Position numbers and translations under genes: made by a program
NCBI GenBank assembly: GCA_964510455.1
Contig: CAZECO010000003.1
Span: 1 to 61,592, forward strand
Length of the DNA: 61,592 nucleotides
Direction: 5' to 3'
Source: an uncultured Actinomycetes bacterium
GTDB taxonomy: Bacteria; Actinomycetota; Actinomycetes; S36-B12; GCA-2699445
In this document: in pieces, positions 15,701 through 35,088 of the stretch
Position numbering within the stretch: the first letter of the stretch is position 1
Layout: the number at the start of each line of letters is the position of its first letter
Notes under the pieces: generated by a model
What the model saw: the letters and a program-made list of their open reading frames with translations, nothing else
Database searches by the model: none
What the model was told of the DNA's origin: nothing

Positions 15701-15743
15701 ATGCGCGGGGATGCCGACATGCCGAGATGGGCAGTCCCGGTAT

Positions 15744-15767
15744 TTACTACACTAGATACCGTGAATA
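15744..15767. promoter_or_regulatory. Candidate operator TTACTA-N12-TGAATA
   Basis: AT-rich 6-12-6 motif upstream of the HTH/nirK operon, similar to the sites at 21828 and 33021. Confidence 0.5.
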
Positions 15768-15810
15768 AACTGGTCGGCATGGAACAGCGTCGCCCGCACT
15801 TGGAGGGGCC

Positions 15811-16542
15811 TTGAGCGCCGCTCGCGGGCCCGCCCCCGTCCGCCGCAGCGCCGCCGCGCCCGACCTCTCGGCGGCGCGTGCGCGCCTGCTGGAGCACGTG
15901 CAGCAGCATCAGGGCGATCTCACCGTCGACGAGGTGGCCCGGGAGTTCGACCAGCACCCGAACACCGTGCGCGAGCACCTCGAGGCCCTGGTCGAGGGCG
16001 GCCTGGTGACCCGCGAGCGCATCGCCGGGCCGGGGCGCGGCCGCCCGGCCTGGCGCTACCGGGCCAGCCAGTCGCTGCGCGAGCCCGATCCGCGGGTGCG
16101 CGAGTACGGGGCGCTCGCCGGTGCGCTGGCGGCGCACATCGCGGCACACAGCCCGGATCCGCAGGCGGAGGCACGAACCGCGGGGGAGCGCTGGGGGCGG
16201 GCGCTGGTCGACGGCGGCGCGGGCGAAGCAGGCCTCGACCCCGCCGGCGTCAGGCGCGCGCCCCGTGGTCGGCCCGCCGCCCGGCGACGCGTCGTCGAAC
16301 TGTTGGCCGAGCTCGATTTCGGCCCGCGCGCCAACCGCGCCGACACAAGGATCGTGCTCACGACGTGCCCCCTGCTGGATGTCGCCAAGCGCCATCCCGA
16401 GGTGGTCTGCGCCGCGCACGAGGGAATGGTCGCGGGCGCACTGGACAGCCTGGGCGCGCCCTCCGACGGGGTCGCCCTCACGCCCTTCGGCGCCCCGGAC
16501 GGCTGCATCCTCGTCTTGCAAGCGCCCCGGGAGAGGCCGTGA
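15811..16542 (+). CDS. Winged-HTH transcription regulator with three C-terminal Cys (ArnR/SufR-like)
   Basis: HTH 'LTVDEVAREFDQHPNTVREHLEALV...GRGRPAWRY'; Cys spacing C-x13-C-x2-H-x28-C. Confidence 0.8.
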   Translation: MSAARGPAPVRRSAAAPDLSAARARLLEHVQQHQGDLTVDEVAREFDQHPNTVREHLEALVEGGLVTRERIAGPGRGRPAWRYRASQSLREPDPRVREYGALAGALAAHIAAHSPDPQAEARTAGERWGRALVDGGAGEAGLDPAGVRRAPRGRPAARRRVVELLAELDFGPRANRADTRIVLTTCPLLDVAKRHPEVVCAAHEGMVAGALDSLGAPSDGVALTPFGAPDGCILVLQAPRERP

Positions 16543-17651
16543 CCGCGCCGGCGATCACCGCCCGCGGACCCATCACGGCCGGCACGCGGACGACGATTCC
16601 CCGGCGCCGCCTGGTGCTTCTGGGCCTCGGTGGGATCAGCCTGCTGGCCGGGCTGAACGCGGGCCTGCTGCTTGCCGGCCTACCGGCCCCGATCCGCCTC
16701 GAACGGCTCGAGGCCGTGCACGGACCGCTGATGCTGCTGGGCTTCCTCGGCACCCTCATCGCCCTGGAGCGCGCCATCGCGCTGCGCACCCGGTGGGCGC
16801 TGCTGGCCCCGGGGCTGCTGGGCGGGGGCGGGCTCCTGCTCATCTCGCCGCTCCCGGAGTCCGCCGGCCACGCCGCCCAGACGCTGGGCGCGGCCGCGCT
16901 CTTCGGGGTGTACGCCGCGCTGTGGCGCCGCGGCGGGTCGGAGGCGCTGCTGATCCAGTGGCTCGGGTCGGTGCTCGCGGTGAGCTCGGCATTGCTGTGG
17001 TGGGCCGGGATCCCGACCGGTGCGATCCTGCCCTGCATCGCCGGATTCCTGGTGCTGACGATCGCCGGGGAGCGGCTGGAGTTGGCCCGCGTCGGCGGCC
17101 CGGACCCCGGGGCGGTGCGGCAGTTCGCGATCGCCACCACGCTGGCGGTCCCGCTCGCCGGGGCGGCGCTGCTGTGGCCCACGCCCGGCACGGAGCTGTT
17201 CGCCGGGACGCTGCTGGTCATCGCGGCCTGGTTGGCCCGACACGACGTGGCCGTGCGCCTCGTGCGGGGCACCGGGCTGCCGCGGTACGTGGCGGTGAAC
17301 ATCCTGGCCGGGATCGCGTGGCTGGCGGTCTGCGGGCTCACGCTCCTGCTGCTGGGTCCGCAGCACGACGGACCCGGGTACGACCTTGCGATCCACGCGG
17401 TCGGCCTGGGGTTCGCGATGTCGATGGTGCTGGCGCACGCCCCGATCATCCTGCCGGCGGTCCTGCTGCGGCCCCTGCCGTACCGGCCGGTCCTGTACGC
17501 CGCGACCGTGCTGCTGCAGGGCTCCCTGCTGCTGCGCGCCGCCGCGGATGTGCGCGAGCTCGGGTGGGCGTGGCAGGCCGGCAGCGCGCTCAACGTGGTC
17601 GCGGTGCTGGCGTTCCTGCTGATCTCCGTGACCCTGGTGGTGCGGCGATGA
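16539..17651 (+). CDS. Polytopic membrane protein with intramembrane His (NnrS-like)
   Basis: About 12 hydrophobic segments, 'HGPLMLLGFLGTLIALERA' and 'HAVGLGF..MVLAHAPIILP'. GTG overlaps the upstream stop. Confidence 0.75.
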   Translation: MTAPAITARGPITAGTRTTIPRRRLVLLGLGGISLLAGLNAGLLLAGLPAPIRLERLEAVHGPLMLLGFLGTLIALERAIALRTRWALLAPGLLGGGGLLLISPLPESAGHAAQTLGAAALFGVYAALWRRGGSEALLIQWLGSVLAVSSALLWWAGIPTGAILPCIAGFLVLTIAGERLELARVGGPDPGAVRQFAIATTLAVPLAGAALLWPTPGTELFAGTLLVIAAWLARHDVAVRLVRGTGLPRYVAVNILAGIAWLAVCGLTLLLLGPQHDGPGYDLAIHAVGLGFAMSMVLAHAPIILPAVLLRPLPYRPVLYAATVLLQGSLLLRAAADVRELGWAWQAGSALNVVAVLAFLLISVTLVVRR

Positions 17652-20197: not shown

Positions 20198-20262
20198 TCT
20201 CCGAGGCCGGGGCCGGTGACGTTCAGAAGCGTCTGCAGGTCATGACCGGCAGCCCGGCTAGC

Positions 20263-21441
20263 CTACGAGGCAACGGGCAGCAGGCGCTCGATGTCGTCGG
20301 CGAACCCAAAGCTGCCGGGCTGGTAGGCGCACAACGGGTCGTCGCCGAGCAGGTCGCCGGTGGCGCCAAAGGCCCGCGGGCGCGAACCCCCGCACACCCG
20401 GCGGAACTCGCAGGCTCCGCAGCGGTCAGTCGGCGCGTCGGGATCGCGCAGCTGCCGGAAGAGCGTCGAGTCCCGGTAGATGCTGGTCAGTGGCCGGTCC
20501 TGCACGTTGCCGGCGGACACCGGGAGGAATCCGCTGGGGTACACCTGTCCGGTGTGGGAGACGAAGGCGAATCCCCGGCCGGCGCTGATCGGCAGGGGCG
20601 GGCGGCGAGGTCCCTCATCGTTCTCAGGCAGCCCCAACTCCCGCATCCGCTGCACGAGGTAGTCGTATTCGACACCGGTCAGTCCGGCTCCCTTCAGCGG
20701 GATGCCCCGGTCAGCGAGGATGCGCCGTTGGAAGCTGACGCGACGGAACGCGGGCGCCTCGGTGGTCTTCACCGACACGATCCGGTTGGCGTCGTAGCAG
20801 AAGTGCAGAACGTCCTCGGTTTGCTGCGCCCTCAGTTGCGGCAGGTGCGTTCCGCGGCCGGTGGGGACGAGGAAGAACAACGACCAGGTCAGCGCTCCGC
20901 GGGAGTGGATCAGGGCCAGCAGGTCGGGCAGTTGGCGGAAGTTGGAGGGCGTCACGGCTGTGTTGATCTGGACCCGCAGCCCCAGCTCCTTGGCCCTCGC
21001 CCACCCGGCCAGCGTGAGGTTGAAGCTCCCCTCGACGCCGCGGAACCCGTCGTGGGTGGGAGCATCGGCGCCGTCGATGCTCAGCGAGATCGCGCTCGCG
21101 CCGGCCTCCCGCAACCGGCGCAGGTTCGGCTCGTTCAAGGCGGGCGTCCCGGACGGCGACACCGCGACCGGCAGCCCGATGCCCGCCCCGTGGGCTACGA
21201 GTTCGTACAGGTCGGGCCGCATGAACGGGTCCCCGCCGGTGATGACGAAGAAGGGGGGCGGTTGGCCGACCGAGCGGACATCGTCCATCAGGTCGCACGC
21301 CTGCTGCGTCGTCAGCTCCCAGGGGCTGCGCTGCGGGATCGCCTCCGCCCGGCAGTGCAGACAGGCCAGCGCGCAGGCCCGCGTGGCCTCCCAGATGACG
21401 ATGAACGGGCGCTGGGCCAGATCCATGTGCGCCGTGCGCAT
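20263..21441 (-). CDS. Radical SAM/SPASM-type protein (TIGR04053-like, NirJ/Ahb-related clade)
   Basis: CALACLHC in 'IVIWEATRAC..C..CRA' and C-terminal 'CGACEFRRVCGGSRPRA...DPLC'. Confidence 0.85.
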   Translation of the reverse strand: MRTAHMDLAQRPFIVIWEATRACALACLHCRAEAIPQRSPWELTTQQACDLMDDVRSVGQPPPFFVITGGDPFMRPDLYELVAHGAGIGLPVAVSPSGTPALNEPNLRRLREAGASAISLSIDGADAPTHDGFRGVEGSFNLTLAGWARAKELGLRVQINTAVTPSNFRQLPDLLALIHSRGALTWSLFFLVPTGRGTHLPQLRAQQTEDVLHFCYDANRIVSVKTTEAPAFRRVSFQRRILADRGIPLKGAGLTGVEYDYLVQRMRELGLPENDEGPRRPPLPISAGRGFAFVSHTGQVYPSGFLPVSAGNVQDRPLTSIYRDSTLFRQLRDPDAPTDRCGACEFRRVCGGSRPRAFGATGDLLGDDPLCAYQPGSFGFADDIERLLPVAS

Positions 21442-21485
21442 GACGGGCCGCCCGGTCCTACCGACGCCCGCCCCCGGGCCAGGCA

Positions 21486-21785
21486 TCAGGGGGTGCGGAC
21501 CAGCCGCAGCCGCCATTCCTGCGGCCCCCGCTGCAGGTACTCGACCTGAATCGCGCCGTCGTAGCGCTGCTCGGCCTGGGCCAGCAGCGGCAGCGGGTCG
21601 TGCGGGGCGATCAGCACCAGCCCGCCTCCCGGCGCGATGGAGTCCAGGGCGCCGAAGATCGTGGCATGCCTGATCGCGTGCGGGATGGCTCGGGCGTCCA
21701 GCACCGGCTCGGCATCGTGCTCGTGCCCGCAGCCGCACTGGTGCTCGGCCTGCGCCAGCGGGATCTCGGTACGTGAGTCGGTCAT
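21486..21785 (-). CDS. DUF2249 domain protein
   Basis: 'VLDARAIPHAIRHATIFGAL...LIAPHDPLPLL..QRGPQEW' with an N-terminal 'HQCGCGH'. Confidence 0.85.
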   Translation of the reverse strand: MTDSRTEIPLAQAEHQCGCGHEHDAEPVLDARAIPHAIRHATIFGALDSIAPGGGLVLIAPHDPLPLLAQAEQRYDGAIQVEYLQRGPQEWRLRLVRTP

Positions 21786-21827
21786 CAGGTTCCCTTTCGT
21801 CATGGGTCAATCAGCCTAGGATTCAGT

Positions 21828-21851
21828 TTACTACGGTGCTTGCCGTAAAAA
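21828..21851. promoter_or_regulatory. Candidate operator TTACTA-N12-TAAAAA
   Basis: AT-rich 6-12-6 motif upstream of DUF2249 and the radical SAM gene. Confidence 0.5.
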
Positions 21852-21870
21852 AAGATATGGGACGGCCAGG

Positions 21871-22650
21871 TCAACCCAGCGCCAGCGCCGTACCGATCAC
21901 CACGAGCACTGACACCAGGGACTCGACCGCGCCGATCACCCCGGGCCTGCTCCCGGCGGGCACGGCGTAGGCGCGCGTCGCGGCGGCGCCGAAGGGCAGG
22001 AGCAGCCACGGCGACAATAGGCCCAGGCCGAGCGCGGCGGTGTGGAACACCCGCGACGCCACCGCCCACCGGCGGTCCCCGGCCTCCCTGATGAGCGACT
22101 TGACGTGCAGAACGGATCCGGTGAAGAACACCAGGCAGATGCCCGCCGCCGCCCACGCTTCGGCGGGCGGTCGGGCGTCGATCGTGATGGCCCACATCAG
22201 CGGGACCGCCAGCGCCGCCTGGGCCACCAGCAGCAGGTCGTTGCCGACCCCGCGCTCCCGTCCGGCCCGGGCCAGCCACAGGCTGGCCGACCAGGCGAGG
22301 GCGAGCACCGGCGCCAGCACGATCAGCCAGGGCCGAAGCACCAGCAGGACGGCGGCGGGGACTAGGGCCATCGCAATCCAGGGTGCTGCTGCCGACAGCT
22401 CGCGCTTGGCGAGCCGCGACCACGTGCCGCGCCGCCATCGGATCACCACCGCCCGGCTGGCGAAGAAGCTGGCCGGGTAGGACAGGAACCAGGCCAGGGC
22501 GAAGCACACGCCGATCGCGGTCCAGCCCGCCAGGATGAACACCAGCAGGACCGGGACGGCCAGGAACGCCCAGGCGCCGTGCTGGTTGGGGATGGCCAGG
22601 CTCCGCCGGCGCGGACGCGCCTTGGGCGGCGCCGACGTCGTGGTGGTCAC
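21871..22650 (-). CDS. YwiC-like membrane protein
   Basis: 'IPNQHGAW' signature, multiple TM segments and 'FFTGSVLHVKSLIRE'; start overlaps the narI stop. Confidence 0.85.
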   Translation of the reverse strand: MTTTTSAPPKARPRRRSLAIPNQHGAWAFLAVPVLLVFILAGWTAIGVCFALAWFLSYPASFFASRAVVIRWRRGTWSRLAKRELSAAAPWIAMALVPAAVLLVLRPWLIVLAPVLALAWSASLWLARAGRERGVGNDLLLVAQAALAVPLMWAITIDARPPAEAWAAAGICLVFFTGSVLHVKSLIREAGDRRWAVASRVFHTAALGLGLLSPWLLLPFGAAATRAYAVPAGSRPGVIGAVESLVSVLVVIGTALALG

Positions 22651-23390
22651 CCGACCTTCTCCCAGCCGCGCCTCGGGGGCCGGTTGCCCGCGTCGTGCGG
22701 TCCGCGGTCCCGGTAGACGACGTACGGCCGGAACAGGTAGCCGATCGGCGCGCTGAAGGCGTGCACCAGCCGGGTGAACGGCCACACCATGAACAGCGCC
22801 AGGCCCGCGACGGCGTGCACGCGGAACGCCAGCGGCGCACCCGCCATCAGCTCCGGCTGCGGGTTGAGCAGGAAGATCGACCGGAACCAGACCGAGACGT
22901 CCTCGCGGTAGTTGTGGCCCTCGCCGATCACCCCGGCGCCGACCATGGTGGCGATGACGCCCAGGCAGATCGCCGATACCAGGAACACGTACATGGTCTT
23001 GTCGTTCTTCGTCGTCGCGGCGAAGACCGGGCCCACCGTGCGGCGGCGGTAGATGAGCAGCGCGATGCCGGCGACGGTCGCGAACCCGGCGAAGGCGCCC
23101 AGCGTCACGGCGAAGAAGTGGTACACGGATTCGGAGATCCCCAGCGCCTCGGTCCAGGACTCGGGAACGAGCAGCCCCATCACATGCCCCATGGCGACGG
23201 CCAGGATGCCGAAGTGGAACAGCGGGCTGGCGATGCGGATCAGCTTGCGCTCGTACAGCTGGCTGGAGCGGGTCGTCCAGCCGAACTTGTCGTACCGGTA
23301 GCGCCAGATCGTGCCCACCACGAACACCGCGATCGTCACGTAGGGCAGCACCACCCACAGCAGGATGTCCAGGGTGGTCGAATCGCTCAT
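22647..23390 (-). CDS. narI: Respiratory nitrate reductase gamma subunit
   Basis: 'WRYRYDKFGWTTRSSQLYE', 'LFHFGIL..GH' and 'WPFTRLVHAFSAP'. Confidence 0.97.
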   Translation of the reverse strand: MSDSTTLDILLWVVLPYVTIAVFVVGTIWRYRYDKFGWTTRSSQLYERKLIRIASPLFHFGILAVAMGHVMGLLVPESWTEALGISESVYHFFAVTLGAFAGFATVAGIALLIYRRRTVGPVFAATTKNDKTMYVFLVSAICLGVIATMVGAGVIGEGHNYREDVSVWFRSIFLLNPQPELMAGAPLAFRVHAVAGLALFMVWPFTRLVHAFSAPIGYLFRPYVVYRDRGPHDAGNRPPRRGWEKVG

Positions 23391-24025
23391 CGCCGGGCCC
23401 CGATCGTGACCAGCGGGAGGGTCGCCGAGTACGGCTCCAGCCCGACCCGCTCCACCGGCGGCCCGCCCGCGGCCAGTTGCGCCATCCGGGCGCGGACCTC
23501 GGGGGTCAGCGCAGGCAGGGTCGCGATGACTGCGTCGACCACATGCGAATAGGGCGAGTCCAGACCGACCAGGGCCTCGCGCAGCAGCCGCACCGGTCCG
23601 GCGTGCTCGGCGAGCAGCGCATCGCCGGTGAGCCGGTCGCCGACCGCGGCGAACTCCAGCACGACCGACAGGTGGTCCGCCAGCTCCTTGTCGCCCGGGT
23701 CGAAACCCGCCTCCAGGTAGGCCTGCTTGAAGCGCAGGATCGCCACCCCGCGGTTGCGGGTGTCGCCGTCGGTCCAGTACGTCAGGTACGGGCAGGCGCG
23801 GCGCTTCATGTCGAAGACCGACACATGGTGCCGCTGCACGTCCATGAGCGGCGTCTCGGCGAGGTGATCGAGGAACGCGCCGAGCGGATCGCCCAGGGCG
23901 GGCGGCAGGGTCGCGACTGCCGCGCCGATCCGCGGCAGGCGGGCCGCGAGCTCCTCGTCCGGGTACCACAGCAGCCACGATGCGGCTAGCCGCGCCGCCG
24001 CCACCTGATCGGCGTGATGGTTCAT
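23387..24025 (-). CDS. narJ: Nitrate reductase molybdenum cofactor assembly chaperone
   Basis: 'YLTYWTDGDTRNRG' and 'ELADHLSVVLEFAA'; lies between narH and narI. Confidence 0.95.
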   Translation of the reverse strand: MNHHADQVAAARLAASWLLWYPDEELAARLPRIGAAVATLPPALGDPLGAFLDHLAETPLMDVQRHHVSVFDMKRRACPYLTYWTDGDTRNRGVAILRFKQAYLEAGFDPGDKELADHLSVVLEFAAVGDRLTGDALLAEHAGPVRLLREALVGLDSPYSHVVDAVIATLPALTPEVRARMAQLAAGGPPVERVGLEPYSATLPLVTIGARR

Positions 24026-25698
24026 TCGTCCTCCCCCTTGGTGCGCCGCGGCGGAATCGTCGGGATGCCCAGCGGCACCCCGACGCCGTCCCAATTCAGC
24101 AGGCCGACCCGGGCGCCGCGATCCTCCGCGGGCACGATCGTCTCCGACGTCTGCCGCTGCTTCAGGGCGTGGAACGTCTCCACCGCCACGGGCTGCGGAC
24201 GTCCCGACGCCTCGCCGAACGGGCCGGACTCGTACATGCCCGGGGCGCCCTCGTAGTCCAGCGAGCAGGCCAGCTCGTCCAGCGTCCGGGCCGTCTCGGT
24301 GTGCGCCTTCGGGATGACGTAGCGGTCCTCGTACTTGGCGATCGCGAGCAGCCGGTACAGCTCGTACATCTGCTCCTCGGTCATCCCGACCGCCTCGCAC
24401 AGCTCGGGACGCGCCTCGTTGCCCAGGTTGTGGTCGCGCATGTACGAGCGCATCGCCGCCAGGATGTGCAGCGAACGCTTGACCGGCACCACGTCGCCAG
24501 CGGTGAACAACTCGGCGAGGTACTCGATCGGGATCCGCAGCGAGGACAGCGCCCCGAACAGGTTCCCGGCGTCCTCGGCGTCGTGGCCGGTGTCCCGCAG
24601 CGCGTCCACGACCGGGGACAGCGGTGGGATGTACCAGACCATGGGCATCGTCCGGTACTCCGGGTGCAGCGGCAGGGCGACGCGATACTCGCAGGCCAGC
24701 CGGTAGACCGGCGACCGGCCCGCCGCCTCGATCCAGTCGTCCGGGATGCCGTCCCGCCGGGCGGCATCGATAACGGCCGGATCGTTCGGGTCCAGCAACA
24801 GGTCCAGTTGCGCCTCGTACAGGTCGCGCTCGTTGGGTGTCGAGGCGGCCGCGGTCACGCGATCGGCGTCGTACAGGAACAGTCCGAGGTAGCGAAGCCG
24901 GCCCACGCAGGTCTCCGAGCAGACGGTCGGCAGCCCAACCTCGATCCTGGGGTAGCACATGGTGCATTTCTCGGCCTTGCCAGTGCGGTGGTTGAAGAAC
25001 ACCTTCTTGTACGGGCAGCCCGAGACGCACATCCGCCAACCGCGGCAAGCGTCCTGGTCGACCAGCACGATGCCGTCCTCACTGCGCTTGTACATCGCCC
25101 CGGAGGGACAGGACGCGACGCAGGAGGGGTTCAGGCAGTGCTCGCAGATCCGCGGCAGGTAGAACATGAACGCCTGCTCGAACTCCAACTTCACGCGATC
25201 GCCGACCTCGCCCTTGATCTTCTTCAGGACCGGGTCGTTGGGCGCGAGTTCGGGGCCGCCAGCCAGATCGTCGTCCCAGTTGGCCGACCACTCGATCTTC
25301 ATCGGCTTGCCGCTGATCAGCGACTTCGGCCTGGCGACCGGGGTGTGCTCCCCCAGCGGGGCGGAGATCAGCGTGTCGTACTCGTAGGTCCACGGCTCGT
25401 AGTAGTCGCTCATGAGCGGAAGCTTGGGGTTGCTGAAGATCTTCGAGAGCCGATGCAGCCGCCCGCCGGCCCGCAGCCGCAGTTTCCCGCGCTTGACGAT
25501 CCAGCCGCCCTGCCACTTCTCCTGGTCCTGATACGTGCGCGGGTAGCCCTGGCCGGGCCGGGTCTCCACGTTGTTGAACCACGCGTACTCCATGCCGGCC
25601 CGGTTGGTCCAAGCCTGCTTGCAGGTCACCGAGCACGTGTGGCACCCGATGCACTTGTCGAGGTTCATCACCATGCCGACTTGCGCCATAACCTTCAT
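24022..25698 (-). CDS. narH: Respiratory nitrate reductase beta subunit
   Basis: 'MKVMAQVGMVMNLDKCIGCHTCSVTCK', 'CEHCLNPSCVASC' and 'CRGWRMCVSGC'; GAGGAG RBS. Confidence 0.98.
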   Translation of the reverse strand: MKVMAQVGMVMNLDKCIGCHTCSVTCKQAWTNRAGMEYAWFNNVETRPGQGYPRTYQDQEKWQGGWIVKRGKLRLRAGGRLHRLSKIFSNPKLPLMSDYYEPWTYEYDTLISAPLGEHTPVARPKSLISGKPMKIEWSANWDDDLAGGPELAPNDPVLKKIKGEVGDRVKLEFEQAFMFYLPRICEHCLNPSCVASCPSGAMYKRSEDGIVLVDQDACRGWRMCVSGCPYKKVFFNHRTGKAEKCTMCYPRIEVGLPTVCSETCVGRLRYLGLFLYDADRVTAAASTPNERDLYEAQLDLLLDPNDPAVIDAARRDGIPDDWIEAAGRSPVYRLACEYRVALPLHPEYRTMPMVWYIPPLSPVVDALRDTGHDAEDAGNLFGALSSLRIPIEYLAELFTAGDVVPVKRSLHILAAMRSYMRDHNLGNEARPELCEAVGMTEEQMYELYRLLAIAKYEDRYVIPKAHTETARTLDELACSLDYEGAPGMYESGPFGEASGRPQPVAVETFHALKQRQTSETIVPAEDRGARVGLLNWDGVGVPLGIPTIPPRRTKGEDE

Positions 25699-25861
25699 CT
25701 GGTCGTCCTCCTCGTGCGTGGGGAGCATTGGGCCGTCCGGAATCGATGATGATGCGCGACGCCGGAGGATGGCGATTCTGGGCGGATTCGACCGGATGTG
25801 GCTGATTCCAGGCGCCAATCGTGCAACCGCCGACGATCTGCGACTCGGCTGCCCTGGTCCA

Positions 25862-28800
25862 TCAGTACGTCACGTCCTGCGAGCGCCGGCGGATCACGGT
25901 GATCTCGTCGCGCTGATTGCCCGTCGGACCGAGGTAGTTCATCGCGAAGGTCAGTTGCGCATAGCCCCCGATCACATGCGTCGGTTTGATCAGCAGCCGC
26001 GTCAACGAGTTGTGGATGCCGCCGCGCTTCCCGGACGTCTCAGCTTGCGGCACGTCCACCGTACGGTCCTTCGCGTGGTACATGTACACCGTCCCCGCGG
26101 GCATCCGGTGGCTGACGATCGCCCGGGCGACGACCACGCCGTTGCGGTTGTACGCCTCGATCCAATCGTTGTCCTTCACCCCGATCGCCTCAGCGTCCTG
26201 CGGGCTCATCCACAGATCCGGCCCGCCGCGGGACAGCGACAGCATGAACAGGTTGTCCTGGTACTCCGAGTGGATCGACCACTTGGAGTGCGGCGTGAGG
26301 TACCGCACGGTCACCTCGCGCCCGGCCCCGGTGCCCTGGTCGCCATACAGCCGGTGCATGTTCAGCGGCGGCCGGAAGGTGGGCAGCTGCTCGCCGACCT
26401 CGCTCATCCAGTCATGGTCGAGGAAGAAGTGCTGCCGTCCGGTGAGGGTGTGCCACGGCTTGAGGTGCTCGACGTTGATGGCGAACGCCGTGTACCGGCG
26501 GCCGCCGTGCTCGCTGCCGGACCACTCGGGGCTGGTGATCACCGGTACCGGCCGTGCCTGGGTGTCGGCGAACGTGATCCGCTTGCCCTCGTGCTCCTGC
26601 GCCAGGAACGCCATGGGCTGGCCGGTGCGCCGCTCCAGATCCTGGAAGCCCTCCACCGCGACCCGGCCGTTTGTGGTGCCGGACAGCGCCAGGATCGCCT
26701 CGCACGCCTGCACATCGGTCACCAGCGCTGGCCGCCCGGCAGCCGGGCCGGACGGGATGACGCCGTTGATCCGGGCGAGCAGGGCGACCTCGGGGGAGGT
26801 GTTGACGGCCACGGCCTTGTGGTTCGTGCCGACCGTGTCCAGCAGCGGGCCCAGTGCGGACATCTTGGCGCCGATCGCGGTGTAGTCGCGCTCGACGGGG
26901 ATGAACTTGGGCGCGGTGGCGCCGGGGATGAGGTCGACCTCGCCGGTGCGCCAGTCACGGACCACGCCGCCCGGGACGGCCATCGCGTCCGGGGTGTCAT
27001 GGGTCAACGGAATGCTCATCACGTCCTGCTCGACCCCGAGGTGCCCCTCCGCCAGCGTCGAGACCGCCCGGCCCAGGCTCTGGAAGATCTCGTAGTCGCT
27101 GCGGGTCTCCCACGGCGGGTCGATGGCCGGCGTGAAGGCGTGCACGTAGGGGTGCATGTCGGTGCTGGACAGGTCGTGCTTCTCATACCAGGTCGCCGCG
27201 GGCAGCAGGATGTCGCCGAACAGCCCGGTGGACGTCATGCGGAAATCGATGGAGACCAGCAGATCGAGCTTGCCGATCGGCTCGTCGTCGCGCCAGGTCA
27301 CGTCCTTGGGCCGCTCGGTCTCGGGCGTCTCGTCGGCGCGGACGGAGTGGTCGGTGCCCAGCAGATGCTTCAGGAAGTACTCGTTGCCCTTGCTGGAGGA
27401 GCCCAGCAGGTTTGCCCGCCAGACGGTCAGTACCCGCGGCCAGTTCTCCGGCGCGTCCGGATCCTCCACGGCGAACTTGAGATCCCCCGACTTCAACTGC
27501 TCGGTGATGTACTGCGCCACGGGTTGCCCTGCGGCCTTGGCGTCGGCCGTGATCTGCAGGGGGTTGCGATTGAAGGAGGGGAAAGACGGCATCCACCCCG
27601 AGCGGGCCGATTGCGCCAGGGTGTCCATCATGGCCATCCCCTTGAACCGACCCTCGCCCAAGGGGGACGCGAGCAGGTCCGCTCCGAGCCGGTCGTAGCG
27701 CCATTGGCTGGTGTTCACGTACCAGAAGGCTGTGCCGATCATCTGCCTGGCCGGCCGCTGCCAGTCCAGTCCGAACGCCAATTGTGCCCAGCCCGTTACC
27801 GGCCGGCACTTCTCCTGGCCGACGTAGTGGGCCCAGCCGCCGCCGTTGATGCCCTGGCAGCCGGTCAAGGTGATCATGGCCAAGAAGGTGCGGTAGATCG
27901 TGTCGGAGTGGAACCAGTGGTTGGTGCCCGCCCCGAGGATGATCATGGAGCGCCCGCCGGAGTCCTCGGCGTTCTGCGCGAACTCCCGGCCCACCCGGAT
28001 CGCCTGGGACGCCGGGACGCCGGTGATCTCCTCCTGCCAGGCGGGTGTGTACGGTGCGGGGTCGTCGTAGCCGGTCGGCCAATCGCCCGGCAGGCCGTCG
28101 CGGCCCACGCCGTACTGGGCCAGCATCAGGTCGAAGACGGTAGTCACGAGACGCTCGCCGCTGACAGTGTGGATCGGGACGGCCGGAACCCCGCGGGAGT
28201 GCACGCCGCCGCCCTCGGAGTTCTCCTGCCCGATGTCGAACCGGGGCATCAGCACCTCGAGGTTCTTCGATCCGCCAGCATGCAGCAGCGTCAGGGCCGG
28301 GTCGACCCCTTCCAGGTCGAGGTTCCACTTGCCCACCCCCGACTCGTTGAACCGGAAGCCCAGGGACCCGTTGGGAACGTGCGGCCGTCCGGCCTTGCGG
28401 TCCACCAGCACCGTCTTGAACGCCGCACCCTCGGCCGTGTCGCCCAGGTCGGCCGCAGTGAGGAACTTGTCCGCGACGTAGGCGCCGTCCTTCTCCCGCA
28501 GCGCGACCAAGAACGGCAGGTCGGAGTACTTCTTGACGTACTCGACGAACCGCGGCACCTGGCGGTCGATGTAGAACTCCTTGAGGATGACGTGCCCCAT
28601 CGCCATGCCCAGCGCACCATCGGTGCCCGGATGGGGATTGAGCCACTCGTCGGCGAACTTGGTGTTGTCCGCGTAGTCCGGCGACACCGTGACGACCTTC
28701 TGGCCCCGGTAGCGCGCTTCGGTCATGAAATGGGCATCGGGTGTGCGGGTGACCGGCACGTTCGCGCCCCACATGATCAGGTACGAGGCGTTCCACCAAT

Positions 28801-29560
28801 CGGCCGACTCCGGCACATCGGTCTGGTCGCCGAACACCTGCGGGGAAGCCACTGGAAGGTCGCAGTACCAGTCGTAGAAGCTGAGCATCGCCCCCCCCAT
28901 GAGGCTGATGAACCGGCTGCCCGCGGCGTGCGAGGCCATGGACATGGCCGGGATGGGGGAGAAGCCGAAGATCCGGTCCGGCCCGTGCTGCTTCACGGTG
29001 TGCACATGCGCGGCCGCCGCGATTTCCAGCACCTCGCCCCAGGATGCCCGCACCAGGCCACCCTTGCCCCGAGCCTTCTGGTAGCGGGCGCGGACGACTG
29101 GATCGCCGACCACCGCGGCCCAGGCGTTCACCGGGTCGGGGTGCACCCGCTTGGCCGCCCGATACGACTCGAGCAGCACGCCGCGCACGTACGGGTAGCG
29201 CACGCGGGTGGGGGAGTACGTGTACCAGGAGAAAGCCGCCCCGCGGGGGCAGCCTCGCGGCTCGTATTCGGGGGAGTCTGGGCCGACACTGGGGTAGTCG
29301 GTCTGCTGGGACTCCCAGGTGATGATCCCGTCCTTGACGTACACCTTCCAGGAGCACGAACCGGTGCAGTTGACCCCGTGCGTGGACCGCACGACCTTGT
29401 CGTGGCTCCACCGGTCGCGGTAGAACGCGTCGCCGTCGCGACCACCTACCCGGGTGACCGTCCGCTGATCGGCGGAGACCTCACCTGGGGTGAAGAACCG
29501 GCCCGCACCCACCAAGAATTCCTTCACGGCATCGGACGGGGCCTGCGGCGCGGGGCTCAT
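25862..29560 (-). CDS. narG: Respiratory nitrate reductase alpha subunit (1232 aa)
   Basis: 'DKVVRSTHGVNCTGSCSWK', 'HYVGQEK' and 'RYLTPHSKWSIHS'; GAGGAG RBS before the ATG at 29560. Confidence 0.98.
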   Translation of the reverse strand: MSPAPQAPSDAVKEFLVGAGRFFTPGEVSADQRTVTRVGGRDGDAFYRDRWSHDKVVRSTHGVNCTGSCSWKVYVKDGIITWESQQTDYPSVGPDSPEYEPRGCPRGAAFSWYTYSPTRVRYPYVRGVLLESYRAAKRVHPDPVNAWAAVVGDPVVRARYQKARGKGGLVRASWGEVLEIAAAAHVHTVKQHGPDRIFGFSPIPAMSMASHAAGSRFISLMGGAMLSFYDWYCDLPVASPQVFGDQTDVPESADWWNASYLIMWGANVPVTRTPDAHFMTEARYRGQKVVTVSPDYADNTKFADEWLNPHPGTDGALGMAMGHVILKEFYIDRQVPRFVEYVKKYSDLPFLVALREKDGAYVADKFLTAADLGDTAEGAAFKTVLVDRKAGRPHVPNGSLGFRFNESGVGKWNLDLEGVDPALTLLHAGGSKNLEVLMPRFDIGQENSEGGGVHSRGVPAVPIHTVSGERLVTTVFDLMLAQYGVGRDGLPGDWPTGYDDPAPYTPAWQEEITGVPASQAIRVGREFAQNAEDSGGRSMIILGAGTNHWFHSDTIYRTFLAMITLTGCQGINGGGWAHYVGQEKCRPVTGWAQLAFGLDWQRPARQMIGTAFWYVNTSQWRYDRLGADLLASPLGEGRFKGMAMMDTLAQSARSGWMPSFPSFNRNPLQITADAKAAGQPVAQYITEQLKSGDLKFAVEDPDAPENWPRVLTVWRANLLGSSSKGNEYFLKHLLGTDHSVRADETPETERPKDVTWRDDEPIGKLDLLVSIDFRMTSTGLFGDILLPAATWYEKHDLSSTDMHPYVHAFTPAIDPPWETRSDYEIFQSLGRAVSTLAEGHLGVEQDVMSIPLTHDTPDAMAVPGGVVRDWRTGEVDLIPGATAPKFIPVERDYTAIGAKMSALGPLLDTVGTNHKAVAVNTSPEVALLARINGVIPSGPAAGRPALVTDVQACEAILALSGTTNGRVAVEGFQDLERRTGQPMAFLAQEHEGKRITFADTQARPVPVITSPEWSGSEHGGRRYTAFAINVEHLKPWHTLTGRQHFFLDHDWMSEVGEQLPTFRPPLNMHRLYGDQGTGAGREVTVRYLTPHSKWSIHSEYQDNLFMLSLSRGGPDLWMSPQDAEAIGVKDNDWIEAYNRNGVVVARAIVSHRMPAGTVYMYHAKDRTVDVPQAETSGKRGGIHNSLTRLLIKPTHVIGGYAQLTFAMNYLGPTGNQRDEITVIRRRSQDVTY

Positions 29561-30291
29561 TCGGGACTCCTCATCGTGATCGTACGAACGGGCCGCTGAT
29601 CGCTGCGGCGCAGGTGGGCCGTGCAAACGCCCGGCCGAGGGAAGACGTCGAACCGCTCCAACTCCACCGGCTGCCCGCTGGCCTCCAGCAGTTGTAGCAG
29701 CAGGGCGGCATGGATGTCGCAGATCACGGGCCGATCCGCGACCAAGTCCGCGTAGGGGCACGACCGCAGATCGATCCGGTCGCCCAGCGGGGTGACGGTC
29801 GCCTGGAAGCCCAGGGCGGCCAGCGAATCGGCCGCCGCGAGCACGGCATCGTCCGCGCTCTGCGCGGGCCGGGGACGGTGATCCGGCTCGAGCTGCGCAG
29901 CCCAACGGCTGGCGGCTTCATGCGCAAGCGCCGCGGAGTCCGCACCCTGCAGCGCGTCCACCAGGGCGTCGGCGAGCTGCTTGCGCTGGCGCATGGCTTC
30001 GGTCTCCACCGCCCGGTACAGCCACGGCGGTCGCCCGCGGCCGACGGACCGGCCCTGCTCCCGCGTGATCCGGCCGGTTGCGAGGAGCAGGTCGAGGTGC
30101 GGACGGACGGTATTGGCGTGCAGTCCTGTCGCTGCGCAGATGCCGTCCATGGGGATCGGCGCGCCGGCCTCGGCGATCGCCCGGAAGACCGCGTCGCGTG
30201 AGGAGGACGTCTTTTCCTGGCCTCCGCTGTGGCTGATCCTGCCGAGCCGCGAAAGCGTCCTGCCGATCGCTGCGGCTGAGGCGGGGGGCAC
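29557..30291 (-). CDS. Second ArnR/SufR-like winged-HTH regulator with three C-terminal Cys
   Basis: 'GLHANTVRPHLDLL...GRGRPPWLY'; Cys spacing C-x12-C-x2-H-x28-C; stop overlaps the narG start; start codon uncertain. Confidence 0.8.
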   Translation of the reverse strand: MPPASAAAIGRTLSRLGRISHSGGQEKTSSSRDAVFRAIAEAGAPIPMDGICAATGLHANTVRPHLDLLLATGRITREQGRSVGRGRPPWLYRAVETEAMRQRKQLADALVDALQGADSAALAHEAASRWAAQLEPDHRPRPAQSADDAVLAAADSLAALGFQATVTPLGDRIDLRSCPYADLVADRPVICDIHAALLLQLLEASGQPVELERFDVFPRPGVCTAHLRRSDQRPVRTITMRSPE

Positions 30292-30651
30292 GGGACAGTT
30301 TTACCACACTGCCGGTGTGTTGATATGCACGGGGTTTATCGTTCCGTGTGACGAAATGCGGAAGCCGGTGGTGAGGATGCGGACAGCTGGCCATGTCGAA
30401 CCGCGGCTGCGCAGTGGATGCTGCGGCAGGGCGCGCCCCGGGGCGTTGATCGCAGTAATCTGCCAGCCCTGCGGTGAAACTCTGCGATTCAACCGTCGCG
30501 GTAGCGAGCCGCCGGCCCGACCCGGGCGGGCGGGCCCGCGCGGCCCGGGGCCGCAGTCCACGGAAGCGGTACCGGCCGGGCCCCCGCAGGCCGCGACGTC
30601 CAGAAAGCCGGGGCCTGACGGTCACGGATCCGTCGGGCCTATCCTGCCGAC

Positions 30652-31731
30652 GTGGACATGGAAATCTTGGGTCGCACCGAGCGCGCGGTGCGGGGGCTGA
30701 CGCCGGGCTACTTCGCGCTGGTCATGGGCACCGGCATCGTGTCCGTCGGGCTCAACCTCGAGCAGCATCGGACGGCTTCACTCGTCCTGATGTGGCTGGC
30801 ATGCGGGGCCTACGCCACGCTCATCGTGCTCAACGTGTGGCGGTTCACGGCCTTCCGGGATGCGGTGGTTGAAGACTTCCAGGACCCACGGCGAGCGTTC
30901 GGCTTCTTCACCTTCATCGCTGGGACGAACGTCATCGGCGTCCGCCTCGCGACTGAGGGCTACTACGGGGCGGCGACGCCGCTGTTCGTCGTGTCCCTGC
31001 TGCTGTGGCTTGTCCTGGGATACGTCATCCCCTGGACAGCGGTGCTCGGTCGTACGGAGCGTCCCCTGGTGGCTATGGCCAACGGCACCTGGTTCATCTG
31101 GGTGGTGGCCAGCCAGTCCGTGGCGGTGGCCGCGGCCACTCTGGAGCCGGTCACTGGATCTGGGCGTCGCGAACTGGCGATCGTGGCCGTATTCGCCTGG
31201 TCCGTGGGAGTGGTCCTCTACGGTGCGGCGGGGGTCTTCGTGGCGGCCCGGATGATGCTGTACGAATTCGGTCCTGTTGACCTCACCCCGCCCTACTGGG
31301 TTGCCATGGGTGCGTGTGCGATCACCGTGCTGGCCGGGGCGCGCATCGTTGAGATGCTAGACGCCCCGATGGTCAACGTAACCCGGGGGCTGGTCGCGGG
31401 AGTGTCTGTGATGTTCTGGTGCTTCGCCACCTGGCTCATCCCGGCGCTGGTTGCCGCTGGATGGTGGCGCCACCGGCTCCATCGGATCCCGCTGAACTAC
31501 GAGGCCACGCTGTGGAGCATCGTCTTCCCCCTCGGGATGTATGCCGCGGCCGGAATCTACATCGGACAGGCCGACGAACTGCCCGTCGTGGCGGGAATCG
31601 GAGCGGGGTGGCTGCTCCTTGTGGCATTGCCCGTCTGGCTCCTCACCTTTGCAGCCATGCTGATCCACCTGGTTCGCACTGTACTGCGCACCCCCGCGTC
31701 GACCACTAGTGTGCCGGGTCCCGCCGGGTGA
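30652..31731 (+). CDS. TDT/SLAC1-family (tellurite-resistance/C4-dicarboxylate) anion transporter
   Basis: 'LTPGYFALVMGTGIVS', 'PPYWVAMGA.AIT' and 'WSIVFPLGMYAAA'. Confidence 0.85.
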   Translation: MDMEILGRTERAVRGLTPGYFALVMGTGIVSVGLNLEQHRTASLVLMWLACGAYATLIVLNVWRFTAFRDAVVEDFQDPRRAFGFFTFIAGTNVIGVRLATEGYYGAATPLFVVSLLLWLVLGYVIPWTAVLGRTERPLVAMANGTWFIWVVASQSVAVAAATLEPVTGSGRRELAIVAVFAWSVGVVLYGAAGVFVAARMMLYEFGPVDLTPPYWVAMGACAITVLAGARIVEMLDAPMVNVTRGLVAGVSVMFWCFATWLIPALVAAGWWRHRLHRIPLNYEATLWSIVFPLGMYAAAGIYIGQADELPVVAGIGAGWLLLVALPVWLLTFAAMLIHLVRTVLRTPASTTSVPGPAG

Positions 31732-31732
31732 G

Positions 31733-32944
31733 TCAGAGCACCCGGGGTCGAATCACCAACCACGTGTAGGCCAGCGCCGCCAGCGCTGCGAACGCGAGCA
31801 GGACGAAGCCGATCGAATAATCGCCGAGCGCGCCATAAATGGCTCCCATGAGCAGCGGGGGGAAGAAGCCGCCCAGGCCCCCGGCTGCGCCGACCACCCC
31901 GGTGACCGAGCCGACCTTGTCCGGTGGCGCGAGCCGGGAGACCAGCGCGAACACTGCACCGGTGCCCAGGCCCAGGGCCGCTGCCAGTCCGAGGAAGGCG
32001 AGGGTCCCGACCGGGACCAGAGGGAATTCGAAGGAGGCAATTCCCGCCAGCACGAAGGCGAGGGTGTAGGACGCCGCGAGCACCGTGACGGGGTGGGTCC
32101 GGTCCGAGAGCCAGCCACCGACGGGTCGCATGATCACCGCGAAGACGACGAAGCCCGCGGTGCGGGTCGCGGCGTCGCCCTGGGTCAGCTCATAGGCGTT
32201 CTTGAGGTAGGTCGGCAGGTACACGCTGAAGGCCACGAATCCACCGAAGGAGACCGCGTAGAGCAGGGCCAGTTCGATGGTGGGGCGAAGCTTGAGCGTG
32301 GCCCAGGTCCGTGCGATCCAGCTCCCCTGGGCGCGCGGGCGGTCGCTGCGATCACGCAGGATCAGCCAGGCCGCGACCGCATAGATGGCCAGAAGCGCCG
32401 CCACCAGGTTGAAGGGGAATGCGGGGCCGACGGATTCGGTCAGGCGGACGGTGGTGAAGGCCGAGATGGCGGTTCCACCCATGCCCGCACCGAAGATGCC
32501 CAACGCCGTTCCCCGCCGGGCGGGTGGGAACCAGGAGTTCACGAAGGGGATGCCGATGGCGAAAGTCGTGCCACCCACTCCGAGGAAGAATCCGGCGACC
32601 AGGTATTCGGCATAGGTGGTCGCAACATTGCCCAGGTACATTACGGGCGCGATGGTGAGCACCGCCATGAGGGGGAACATGACCCTGGCTCCGAGGCGGT
32701 CGGTCAGGGCGCCTACCGGGATGCGGCCCAGCGATCCGACGATCACGGGAACCGCGATCAGTACCGACTGCTGGAAGGAGGTGAGCCCGAGCTGGTCACG
32801 CAGGGCGGGCCCGAGGGGACTGAGCAGTGCCCACGCCCAGAACGTCAGGGCGAAGCCGATGGTCGACATGGCGAGCATCGGGTTGGGTGACCTGCTCTGC
32901 TCGAGGCTCGCCGGATGCCGAGCCTCCGCCAGGTGTTCCTGCAT
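31733..32944 (-). CDS. narK: NarK/NasA-family MFS nitrate/nitrite transporter
   Basis: 'GSLGRIPVGALTDR', 'FAIGIPFVNSWFPPARRG' and 'GVVGAAGGLGGFFPP'. Confidence 0.92.
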   Translation of the reverse strand: MQEHLAEARHPASLEQSRSPNPMLAMSTIGFALTFWAWALLSPLGPALRDQLGLTSFQQSVLIAVPVIVGSLGRIPVGALTDRLGARVMFPLMAVLTIAPVMYLGNVATTYAEYLVAGFFLGVGGTTFAIGIPFVNSWFPPARRGTALGIFGAGMGGTAISAFTTVRLTESVGPAFPFNLVAALLAIYAVAAWLILRDRSDRPRAQGSWIARTWATLKLRPTIELALLYAVSFGGFVAFSVYLPTYLKNAYELTQGDAATRTAGFVVFAVIMRPVGGWLSDRTHPVTVLAASYTLAFVLAGIASFEFPLVPVGTLAFLGLAAALGLGTGAVFALVSRLAPPDKVGSVTGVVGAAGGLGGFFPPLLMGAIYGALGDYSIGFVLLAFAALAALAYTWLVIRPRVL

Positions 32945-33020
32945 CTTCTCTCCTCGTTCCCCGGAGTACTCTCCCGCACAGTACAGGGTTTGGTTACAGC
33001 TGCGACGGTAGAGACCGTGA

Positions 33021-33044
33021 TTATTATGACCTCGGCTTTAATAA
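33021..33044. promoter_or_regulatory. Perfect palindromic operator candidate TTATTA-N12-TAATAA
   Basis: Inverted repeat in the AT-rich region upstream of narK. Confidence 0.6.
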
Positions 33045-33383
33045 GATAGGCGCGTCGCAGTGAGCGACCTGCACCCCCCGGAGGCCGCACGGGCGATGCC
33101 CCTCGCCCGTACCAGTCCGGGCGTGGACCACGAATCGCCTCCCTGTTCGACGCCGAGGAAGTCCAGGAGTTCCGGGGGCCACAATGCGAGCCTCCTGGGA
33201 CGGCGCCGATCGCTCAGCAGCGGATCGCGACCGGCGTGTCGGCGGTAGTCACCACCGCCATCCCACTTGGACCCGTGCGGCGCGACAGTGGCCTCCAGCG
33301 TCCGCCGTCAGTGTTGACAGCCCCCTGAGGCTCGACCAATGTCGGGGATAGGCGTGGCGTACGAGGATCGGAAGGACCTGCCG

Positions 33384-33743
33384 ATGTCCGAGCACAAGGT
33401 ACAGGTGGGCCGCGTCTACGACGCCCGGGCCCGGGAAGACGGCACCCGCGTTCTGGTTGATCGGCTCTGGCCCCGTGGCCTGTCCAAGGCAGCGGCGGAC
33501 ATCGACGAGTGGTGCAAGGGGGTCGCACCGTCGGCAGAGCTGCGTACCTGGTACGGCCATGACCCGGAGAAGTTTGCGGAGTTCACGCGACGCTATCGAG
33601 CCGAACTCGATGATCCCGCGGCCCAGGAGGTGATCGAACACCTGCGCGCCCTGGCCCGGCAGGGCAACATCACGCTGCTGACAGGCAGCAAGGAGGTCGA
33701 CCTCAGCGACGCCGTCGTGCTGGCCGAGCTGCTGGGCGAGTGA
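33384..33743 (+). CDS. DUF488 (YeaO-like) protein
   Basis: 'RVYD...DGTRVLVDRLWPRG...APSAELRTWYGHDPEKF'. Confidence 0.9.
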   Translation: MSEHKVQVGRVYDARAREDGTRVLVDRLWPRGLSKAAADIDEWCKGVAPSAELRTWYGHDPEKFAEFTRRYRAELDDPAAQEVIEHLRALARQGNITLLTGSKEVDLSDAVVLAELLGE

Positions 33744-33908: not shown

Positions 33909-35081
33909 TCATCCCGGCAGTGGCAACAGGGGGACCCGCTGCCCGACCGCAGCGCCGCCCGGCGGTACCACCGCGAAACCGTCGGAGTCCGCAAGTCCTC
34001 GCAGCATCGCCGACCCCAGGTGCGCAACGGGGGTCGCGCGCCCTTCGCGGACCACGCATGCCACCAGACGGTGCTCCTGGGTAGGCGCCTTCGTGGGGTG
34101 CGTGAGTTCAACTGTCGACAGTTGCTCCGGGGGCCGGCCAAGCAGGGAGTCGATGAGCGGCGCACCCAGGGTCAGCAGCGACACGATGGCGCTCTGCGGG
34201 TTGCCGGGCAGGCCGAGCAACCACCGGGCGCCGGCATCCGTGCCGAGGTCCGCCAGGGCCATCGGATGGCCCGGCCGGACCGCGACCGAGTCGATGACGA
34301 AGGCCCCGTCCAGCGCCGCAACCGCCGGATGCAGATGGTCCACCGGGCCGGCCGCCGTGCCTCCGGTGGTGATGACCAGGTCGGCGTCCGGCCGCGCCGC
34401 GGCGATCGCTGCGATGTGCGCAGCCAGCGTGTCGGACGCCCGCGCCACCGAGACGGTGGCGACCCCCAGGCGCTCCAACCAGCCCGGCAGCTGCGGCCCG
34501 AGGGAATCGCGGACCTGGCCCGTGCCAGCGACACCCGATTCGGTCAGCTCGTCGCCGAACAGCACGATCGCAGCGCGCACCCGTTGTCGAACCTCGATCG
34601 CATCGAGACCCGCGGCGGCGAACATGCCGAGGTGGGCGGGAGTGAGGGTTGTGCCTGCGCCCGCAAGCACATCGCCTGCCCGGCATTCCTCGCCGCGAGG
34701 GCGGATGTCGGTCCCCACTGCCGGCGCGGGGGCGGATACCGATCCGTCCGCGAGCGAGCCGTCCTCCCGCCGCACCACTGCGGTCGCCCCGTCGGGCACA
34801 GCCGCACCGGTGGCGATGACACACGCTTCGCCCGGACGCAGCAGGACATCGGGTGCGCGGCCCGCTAGCACCGTGCCGATCAGCCGCCAGGGTCCAGGTC
34901 CGGCGACCGCCCAGCCGTCCATCGCCGAGGTGGGATACGCGGGCAGGTCGGTCAAGGCGCGGGCGGCCGCTGCCAGCACCGTCCGGTCGGCCACGGTGAG
35001 AGGGACCGTCTGCGCCGACAGCACGGTGCCGCACGCCGCAGCCCGGCGGGCGCTATACCAATCGGGCTCGTGCAGGGTCAT
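33909..35081 (-). CDS. moeA: Molybdopterin molybdotransferase
   Basis: 'SAMDGWAV', 'IATGAAVP', 'LVITTGGTAAG..D', 'VRPGHP' and 'LPGNPQSA'. Confidence 0.93.
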   Translation of the reverse strand: MTLHEPDWYSARRAAACGTVLSAQTVPLTVADRTVLAAAARALTDLPAYPTSAMDGWAVAGPGPWRLIGTVLAGRAPDVLLRPGEACVIATGAAVPDGATAVVRREDGSLADGSVSAPAPAVGTDIRPRGEECRAGDVLAGAGTTLTPAHLGMFAAAGLDAIEVRQRVRAAIVLFGDELTESGVAGTGQVRDSLGPQLPGWLERLGVATVSVARASDTLAAHIAAIAAARPDADLVITTGGTAAGPVDHLHPAVAALDGAFVIDSVAVRPGHPMALADLGTDAGARWLLGLPGNPQSAIVSLLTLGAPLIDSLLGRPPEQLSTVELTHPTKAPTQEHRLVACVVREGRATPVAHLGSAMLRGLADSDGFAVVPPGGAAVGQRVPLLPLPG

Positions 35082-35088
35082 GGGAGCG

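Follow-up and report, generated by a model that had tools for sequence, protein, structure and literature searches.

Two predicted operator types and two ArnR/SufR-like regulators at a nitrate and nitrite reduction locus of an uncultured actinobacterium

The stretch considered here (the window) comprises the 61,592 nucleotides of contig CAZECO010000003.1 from the metagenome-assembled genome (MAG) GCA_964510455.1 of an uncultured Actinomycetes bacterium. It carries genes for nitrate and nitrite reduction together with genes for two winged helix-turn-helix (wHTH) proteins of the ArnR/SufR-like family (COG2345), named R1 and R2, and four AT-rich sites, named S1 to S4. Genes were assigned by open reading frame (ORF) calling guided by the G+C content of third codon positions (GC3) and by family searches. 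At the window's G+C content of ~70%, A/T runs of at least 5 bases number only 29, and paired runs of at least 6 bases outside coding sequence are found only at S1 and S4; a further pair, at 31816/31835, falls within the coding region of narK and was discounted. An initial annotation had assigned S1, S2 and S4 to one 6-12-6 motif, TTAYTA-N12-TAATAA, and S3 to it as a weaker half-site; all four do exist where it had placed them, far beyond chance in DNA of this composition. The features concerned are:

15743..15768, + strand: S1, predicted R1-type operator TTTACTACactagataccGTGAATAA (35.1 bits, matrix from other genomes)
15779..15814, + strand: upstream ORF (uORF) of 11 codons, MEQRRPHLEGP, read from the sequence
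15811..16542, + strand: R1 regulator of the R1 clade (wHTH, RGRP AT-hook, C186/C200/H203/C232)
16539..17651, + strand: X, polytopic membrane protein (62% identical to its paralogue on contig C1)
17648..20197, + strand: membrane domain-cupredoxin-NirK fusion, copper nitrite reductase (TIGR02376, E 1.4e-46)
20263..21489, - strand: radical SAM/SPASM protein, TIGR04053, AhbD/NirJ-like (458.8 bits, cut-off 395)
21486..21803, - strand: DUF2249 protein, first gene of the DUF2249-radical SAM operon (PF10006, E 1.9e-25)
21827..21852, + strand: S2, predicted R1-type operator TTTACTACggtgcttgccGTAAAAAA (32.3 bits), adjoining DUF2249 in the canonical position
21871-22650, - strand: ywiC (Pfam match, start codon; likewise the next four genes)
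22647-23390, - strand: narI
about 23387-24025, - strand: narJ
24022-25698, - strand: narH
25862-29560, - strand: narG
29557..30291, - strand: R2 regulator of the R2 clade (wHTH, RGRP AT-hook, C178/C191/H194/C223)
30294..30351, - strand: S3 region, predicted R2-type control region TCACACggaacGATAAACCCCGTGCATATCaacacaCCGGcaGTGTGGTAAAACtgtccc (R2 matrix 20.9 bits at 30317-30338)
31733..32944, - strand: narK nitrate/nitrite transporter (TIGR00886, E 4.3e-57)
33009..33046, + strand: S4, predicted R2-type operator copy upstream of narK, TAGAGACCGTGATTATTatgacctcggcTTTAATAAga (R2 matrix 17.4 bits)

Judged by sequence, the four AT-rich sites are of two operator types, each linked to its own ArnR/SufR-like regulator. 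A matrix was built for each clade, that for R1 from 7 sites outside the window (in other genomes or contigs) and that for R2, 22 nt long, from 22 narK/R2 loci; genome-wide scans covered both strands of the 3.9-Mb assembly (7.8 million positions). While S1 and S2 score 35.1 and 32.3 bits with the R1 matrix, that matrix gives no more than 3.2 bits around S3 and 9.1 bits around S4; conversely, the R2 matrix gives 20.9 bits at S3 and 17.4 bits at S4 versus at most 10.3 bits at S1 and S2. The proposal of a single shared motif therefore gives way to two classes. With up to two mismatches, TTAYTA-N12-TAATAA describes only S2 (21828, one mismatch) and S4 (33021), S1 needing three. S4 is indeed the perfect palindrome reported, with 0 mismatches, where shuffled sequences are expected to give 0.00 matches at up to two; S3 is the partial match it had been said to be. 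Motif identity, specificity, conservation, promoter position and gene linkage, together with the family features of the proteins, are established by the comparisons described here.

S1 and S2 are copies of one 26-bp imperfect palindrome, TTTACTAC-N10-GTGGAAAA. The same 26-bp element recurs without gaps upstream of R1 homologues (40-52% identical) in relatives, where every R1-type homologue has it. S1 matches TTTACTAC-N10-GTGRAWAA exactly (0.01 expected by chance) and S2 with one mismatch. Genome-wide, the R1 matrix exceeds 30 bits at only four sites, namely S1, S2, C1:47546 (34.7 bits) and C363:893 (32.2 bits), and the next best match reaches 16 bits. S1 overlaps a promoter consisting of TTTACT (-35), 17 nt and TAAACT (-10, 15766-15771). 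The R1 consensus likewise holds a promoter, made up of TTTACT, a spacer of 17-18 nt and AATAAT (in the window, TAAACT), and shows dyad symmetry (TTTWCYAC / GTRGWAAA); its extended form, aTTTACTACAcT-N4-tCCGTGGAAAAtaat, has conserved bases within the promoter spacer. Because the interval between -35 and -10 is filled at normal spacer length, the site has the geometry of a repressor operator. Covariation between recognition residues and operator was also considered: TTTGGCAC sites co-occur with GRGRPGW, a pattern left unused since phylogeny confounds it.

Scanning an R1-clade alignment against one genome per species gave 66 loci in named Actinomycetota, including Nocardioides, Blastococcus, Pedococcus, Pengzhenrongella, Timonella and Kribbella. 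The motif scores at least 18 bits in 61 of them, always on the strand of the regulator and directly upstream of it, and A/T tracts flank the core (TTTA-CTAC-N10-GTGG-AAAA) over the regulator's own -35 and -10 in 61/66. The initial annotation had made its proposal depend on conservation in orthologous promoters, and for the R1-type element such conservation is what the 66 loci display. A divergent DUF2249 gene adjoins 48 of the 66, NirK lies downstream in 29 and X in 25, and no other regulator accompanies these loci with any consistency. The divergent operon continues into narK-narG in 14/66, mostly in Nocardioides. The suggestion that two paralogues divide nitrate from nitrite reduction is supported in this genome, where R1 goes with nirK and DUF2249 and R2 with narGHJI and narK; the division is lineage-specific, as in Nocardioides and other genera an R1-type operator separates the regulator from a divergent operon of DUF2249, narK and narG. 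The window's multi-operator layout has an independent counterpart on a contig of the MAG UBA10799 (L074), where three separate R1-type sites, at 90, 3974 and 6652, precede X-nirK, the regulator and DUF2249-radical SAM, respectively.

The genome contains paralogous R1-type clusters. On contig C1 the cluster is undivided, in the order radical SAM-P450-ORF-DUF2249, motif, R1'-X'-NirK' (C1:43500-52050, L022); a unit of this type appears split in the window into S1-R1-X-nirK and S2-DUF2249-radical SAM. A copy of R1-X with 89% identity lies on the 2-kb contig C363. The extra clusters on C1, C363 and C7 (the last described below) could be real paralogues or could reflect strain mixing, the assembly being a MAG with 3.7% contamination. 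The C1 DUF2249-radical SAM operon also includes a cytochrome P450 gene (C1:45161-46312; L022:5161-6312), as do loci L054 and L075, and a weak R1-matrix match of 15.1 bits lies at the start of the P450 gene (C1:46305). No nitric oxide (NO) reductase is visible in the clusters with P450, and an NO-related role of the P450 is worth considering.

On the regulator side of S2, only ATGGGACGGCC is left before the 3' end of ywiC begins. The sequence that follows S2 in the window (21853-21870), gatATGGGACGGCCAGG, resembles the start of R1-type regulators, ATG-GGN-CCN-GCN (MGPA; MGPAP), and is possibly the scar of a rearrangement that split an ancestral divergent unit. Tblastn searches for decayed regulator genes downstream of S2 and S4 returned nothing significant, and the idea of a relic is therefore confined to promoter-level similarity and to ATGGGACGGCC after S2. 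At S1, the uORF starts 7 nt past the -10 and its TGA overlaps the TTG start of R1 (TTGA); it is probably leaderless. The 89% copy on C363 has a counterpart (L002, about 925-1010) with an ATGA overlap, the two peptides differing in length and sequence. In most other genera the regulator begins directly after the operator, with no intervening short ORF.

R2-type regulators occur in 87/201 genomes of the order, and in nearly all of 30 loci narK and R2-narG are divergent neighbours or form the tandem narK-R2-narG. Their upstream regions stack almost gap-free and contain, in order, a TTT(A/G)TTCAC box, CCGTG-TTTATT, 12 nt, (C)GTG-TTTAT and the -10 GTGGTAGAA, the two A/T tracts being conserved 18 bp apart. 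The ATG or GTG follows 6-7 nt after the -10, which points to a leaderless transcript. Genome-wide, at least 17 bits are reached by the R2 matrix only at C7:4633 (25.5 bits), which precedes a second R2 copy (R2'), at S3 and at S4. The fourth-best match (window 6184), beside an IS256/Mutator transposase, was treated as background. Out of sample, 13/20 further R2 loci score at least 15 bits in the same place and orientation. At S3, the -10 TAAAAC (30298-30303) is followed by the predicted leaderless GTG at 30291, and the region is read as combining the -10 of a leaderless promoter for R2 with a degenerate copy of the R2 control region. An nhmmer search with a 72-nt profile for the canonical intergenic region of narK and R2 has S3 as its best match genome-wide (E 0.063), and finds the C7 copy at E 0.17. 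S4 contains TTATTA-N12-TAATAA, which corresponds to the canonical pair TTTATT-N12-TTTAT, and its register is canonical too, with TTTG-N26-CCGTG and a distance of 25 nt between CCGTG and G(G/A)TAG; its orientation is that of the R2-type site in metagenome locus L132 (24.7 bits). The putative -10 of narK is TACTGT (32978-32983), of which TAnnnT is kept in 5 aligned narK upstream regions. A metagenome scan with NarK yielded 80 loci at 53-72% identity, about 8 with an R1-type site and one with an R2-type site (L132); none of the 80 offered a close footprint for S4. As a separate observation, the second nar cluster (C7:3878-6100, L004) has the tandem order narK-R2'-narG, its NarG and NarK being 91% and 94% identical to those of the window and R2' only 66%.

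Stop and start codons overlap between R1 and X (GTGA, at the GTG start of X), between X and the ATG of the NirK fusion, and between R2 and the ATG of narG (ATGA), so R1 and R2 each head an operon, R1-X-nirK and R2-narGHJI-ywiC, as the initial annotation had it. The nar operon begins with R2, and narG, narH, narJ, narI and ywiC (21871..29560, - strand) are tightly coupled. The NirK fusion also matched cupredoxin and multicopper-oxidase domains, and family searches gave no match for X.

The two regulators are paralogues, 28% identical (E 3e-14), and share the pattern C-x12/13-C-x2-H-x28-C already recognised: C186-x13-C200-x2-H203-x28-C232 in R1 and C178-x12-C191-x2-H194-x28-C223 in R2. In a 12-sequence alignment of both clades, the first two Cys and the His column (H203/H194) are invariant and the third Cys nearly so; H-x-NT-x-R-x-HL, G-R-P, C, P and C-x2-H are invariant in both clades. 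The AT-hook, GRGRP, occupies residues 75-79 of R1 and 84-88 of R2, with G77, R78 and P79 invariant across both clades. The N-terminal wHTH of R1 is supported by HTH_20, IclR and MarR_2 matches and by Foldseek (AbfR2/Lrs14-type wHTH, E 1e-4); for R2 the support is weaker (Lrs14/Sta1 matches), and R2 aligns throughout with R1. The AlphaFold model of R1 (pLDDT 83.9) matches the archaeal Lrs14/AbfR2 wHTH, and its C-terminal part matches TRAPPC3 (6aq3, TMq 0.43-0.44 over ~168 columns), as the ArnR model also does (PMC12343034); of the two proteins, R1 is the one for which this TRAPPC3-like sensor fold was modelled. Both proteins carry the SufR/ArnR (COG2345) motifs, including the His that in ArnR and its close homologues replaces the Glu of SufR (bioRxiv 10.64898/2025.12.26.696629; PMC12343034), which bears out the ArnR-like assignment made at the outset. 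In a tree, the R1 clade (support 93/78) stands apart from the R2 clade (86/80), and the genome's own SufR is a distant outgroup. The genome has six members of the family; its SufR-like gene lies separately, at C4:56956-57522. R1 and R2 are not SufR proper: the SufR model TIGR02702 gives R1 30.9 bits against a cut-off of 178.8 and does not match R2, and their neighbours are nir/nar genes rather than suf. Family searches matched no Rrf2 or CRP/FNR domain in either protein, and a PDB sequence search detected no SufR or ArnR relative.

Taken together, these features make it probable that the locus holds two regulator-operator pairs of ArnR/SufR-like iron-sulfur (Fe-S) wHTH/AT-hook transcription factors; what we infer is the assignment of each protein to its sites, repression as the mode of action, the Fe-S cluster and NO as the signal. 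R1 would most likely bind TTTACTAC-N10-GTGGAAAA as a dimer, between and over the -35 (TTTACT) and the -10 of its own promoter (the latter being TAAACT in the window but AATAAT in most genera), and would also overlap the -10 of the promoter serving the divergent DUF2249 gene. Through S1 it would control R1-X-nirK, and through S2 DUF2249-radical SAM. R2 is predicted to pair with the CCGTG-TTTATT-N12-TTTAT region, at S3 upstream of its own gene and at S4 upstream of narK. Both proteins would be cluster-bound dimeric repressors; NO arising from nitrate and nitrite respiration would nitrosylate the cluster and release them, as described for ArnR (PMC12343034).

Several findings count against these assignments. 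The pairing of motif and regulator rests on co-localisation, and both motifs overlap core promoter elements, so that part of their conservation is promoter conservation. In S3 the second A/T tract is missing and the spacing falls 4 nt short of canonical. S4, at 17.4 bits, stands barely clear of a background that reaches 16.7 and 16.6, and nhmmer with the 72-nt profile did not recover it, for which reason it rests on the 22-nt matrix and its register; the homologous narK upstream region on C7 reaches only 10.5 bits with the R2 matrix. The R2 operator itself may be either a direct repeat or the palindrome TAAAC-N5-GTTTA.

The boxes could instead be strong conserved sigma-A type promoters, some of them leaderless, or targets of an unrelated factor. 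TTTACT-N17/18-(T/A)AA(A/T)(C/A)T is what a promoter would look like, the motif points the same way with respect to the regulator gene in 61/61 loci, and S3 holds the -10 of a leaderless R2 transcript. However, a plain promoter has no need of conserved spacer bases or of the dyad (TTTWCYAC / GTRGWAAA), only four sites occur per genome, and the motif accompanies the regulator gene from one order to another and is found at unlinked targets (S2, L074), with no other regulator consistently linked. We regard this explanation as improbable. A slim chance is likewise given to one 6-12-6 AT-rich operator read by both paralogues, with a single nar/nir regulon divided or shared between them. Each of the four sites is a pair of AT-rich boxes spaced ~18-22 bp in a promoter region, the H-x-NT-x-R-x-HL recognition-helix motif and the RGRP AT-hook are common to both proteins, and SufR shows low core specificity and A/T-tract dependence (bioRxiv 10.64898/2025.12.26.696629). 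Yet matrices from each clade's own upstream regions split the sites cleanly, the cores differ (CTACAcT...CCGTGG vs CCGTG-TTTATT...TTTAT), and each clade retains its own upstream architecture over many genera.

A further reading, that R1 and/or R2 are activators or dual regulators sensing O2 or Fe-S status and not NO, bears on the sign and signal of control. The nirK gene of proteobacterial denitrifiers is under NO-dependent activation by NnrR/DNR, and the CCGTG box of S4, which precedes the putative transcription start of narK by ~45-60 nt, is in a position that would also suit activation. Set against this are the repressor geometry of the R1 site, between -35 and -10 at a normal 17-18 bp spacer, and the fact that both characterised members of the family, SufR and ArnR, are repressors, ArnR being no direct O2 sensor (PMC12343034). 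This reading is judged unlikely, and two repressor-operator pairs remain the preferred one.

Other features surround these units. A TDT/SLAC1-family anion channel gene (30652..31731, + strand; PF03595, E 1.8e-43) forms an opposite-strand insertion between R2 and narK with its own predicted leaderless promoter (TATCCT-N6-GTG). The family is also found beside R1-type regulators or nar genes in loci L007, L063, L069 and L100, and the protein is a candidate nitrite or anion channel. A DUF488 gene (33339-33743, + strand) and moeA, for molybdopterin biosynthesis (33909-35123, - strand), adjoin the narK promoter region, consistent with a nitrate-reductase maturation neighbourhood. The IS256/Mutator-family transposase gene lies at 6422-7777 of the window (PF00872, E 5e-140), ~230 nt downstream of an AT-rich stretch (6184-6205).

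The control of nitrate and nitrite respiration in non-corynebacterial actinobacteria is so far little understood. Full-text literature searches, with RegPrecise-type databases outside the search, found no description of R1- or R2-type operators, nor did they show nirK or DUF2249 under ArnR-like control in organisms other than Corynebacterium. We give even odds to a broader claim, that the R1 clade with TTTACTAC-N10-GTGGAAAA is the main, undescribed denitrification regulator of many high-G+C Gram-positives. Its carriers would include Nocardioides, Blastococcus, Pengzhenrongella and Nanopelagicales-type MAGs, among others. One Fe-S/AT-hook repressor acting on back-to-back promoters would then co-ordinate copper nitrite reductase, its membrane partner and DUF2249 with the AhbD-like radical SAM protein (possibly for oxygen-independent haem maturation), and in many genera narK-narGHJI. 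The R1 clade would fill the place held in proteobacteria by FNR, NnrR/DNR and NsrR, and its sister clade R2 would have taken over the nar operon in the window's order. Apart from this claim, the comparison gives two uncharacterised clades a specific operator and a compact predicted regulon (nirK, the membrane partner, DUF2249-radical SAM, narK and narGHJI), whose conservation extends from Nocardioides of soil to MAGs from wastewater and fresh water. It also links DUF2249 and the radical SAM enzyme of family TIGR04053, both of unknown function, to a predicted nitrogen-oxide regulon, and supplies natural operator variants for testing the model of AT-hook plus HTH recognition proposed for SufR.

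The closest characterised system is ArnR (Cgl1185, UniProt Q8NR72) of Corynebacterium glutamicum, a [4Fe-4S], NO-responsive repressor of narKGHJI and hmp (PMC12343034) and the only non-SufR member of COG2345 with known targets (bioRxiv 10.64898/2025.12.26.696629). By its published description, ArnR shares with R1 and R2 the wHTH, the RGRP wing, a dimerisation helix and the TRAPPC3-like sensor domain. The Cys positions are close (179/193/223 in ArnR, 178/191/223 in R2, 186/200/232 in R1), the conserved His forms C-x2-H with the second Cys, and all are linked to respiratory nitrate reductase genes and to AT-rich dyad operators, such as the ArnR hmp site GGATTTAATCTAATTAAATAAATCC (PMC12343034 Table S1). 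However, the operator sequences differ, being TTTACTAC-N10-GTGGAAAA and CCGTG-TTTATT-N12-TTTAT here. R2 comes first in the nar operon while arnR follows narKGHJI, the predicted R1 targets (nirK, the membrane partner and DUF2249-radical SAM) are not reported for ArnR, and an hmp-type target was not found here. SufR, the [4Fe-4S] repressor of the suf operon (Mycobacterium tuberculosis Rv1460, Streptomyces, cyanobacteria), belongs to the same COG2345 family and is an autoregulated repressor with its operator over its own promoter. In SufR-like proteins the GRP AT-hook reads flanking A/T tracts (bioRxiv 10.64898/2025.12.26.696629), and a similar dual read-out, AT-hook in the A/T tracts plus HTH, is proposed for R1 and R2. 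Unlike them, SufR has Glu and not His as its fourth ligand and adjoins suf genes. NsrR (Rrf2) and NnrR/DNR (CRP/FNR) have unrelated folds and operators, but the role proposed for R1 and R2 would be the same, namely coupling nar and nir expression to NO or anoxia.

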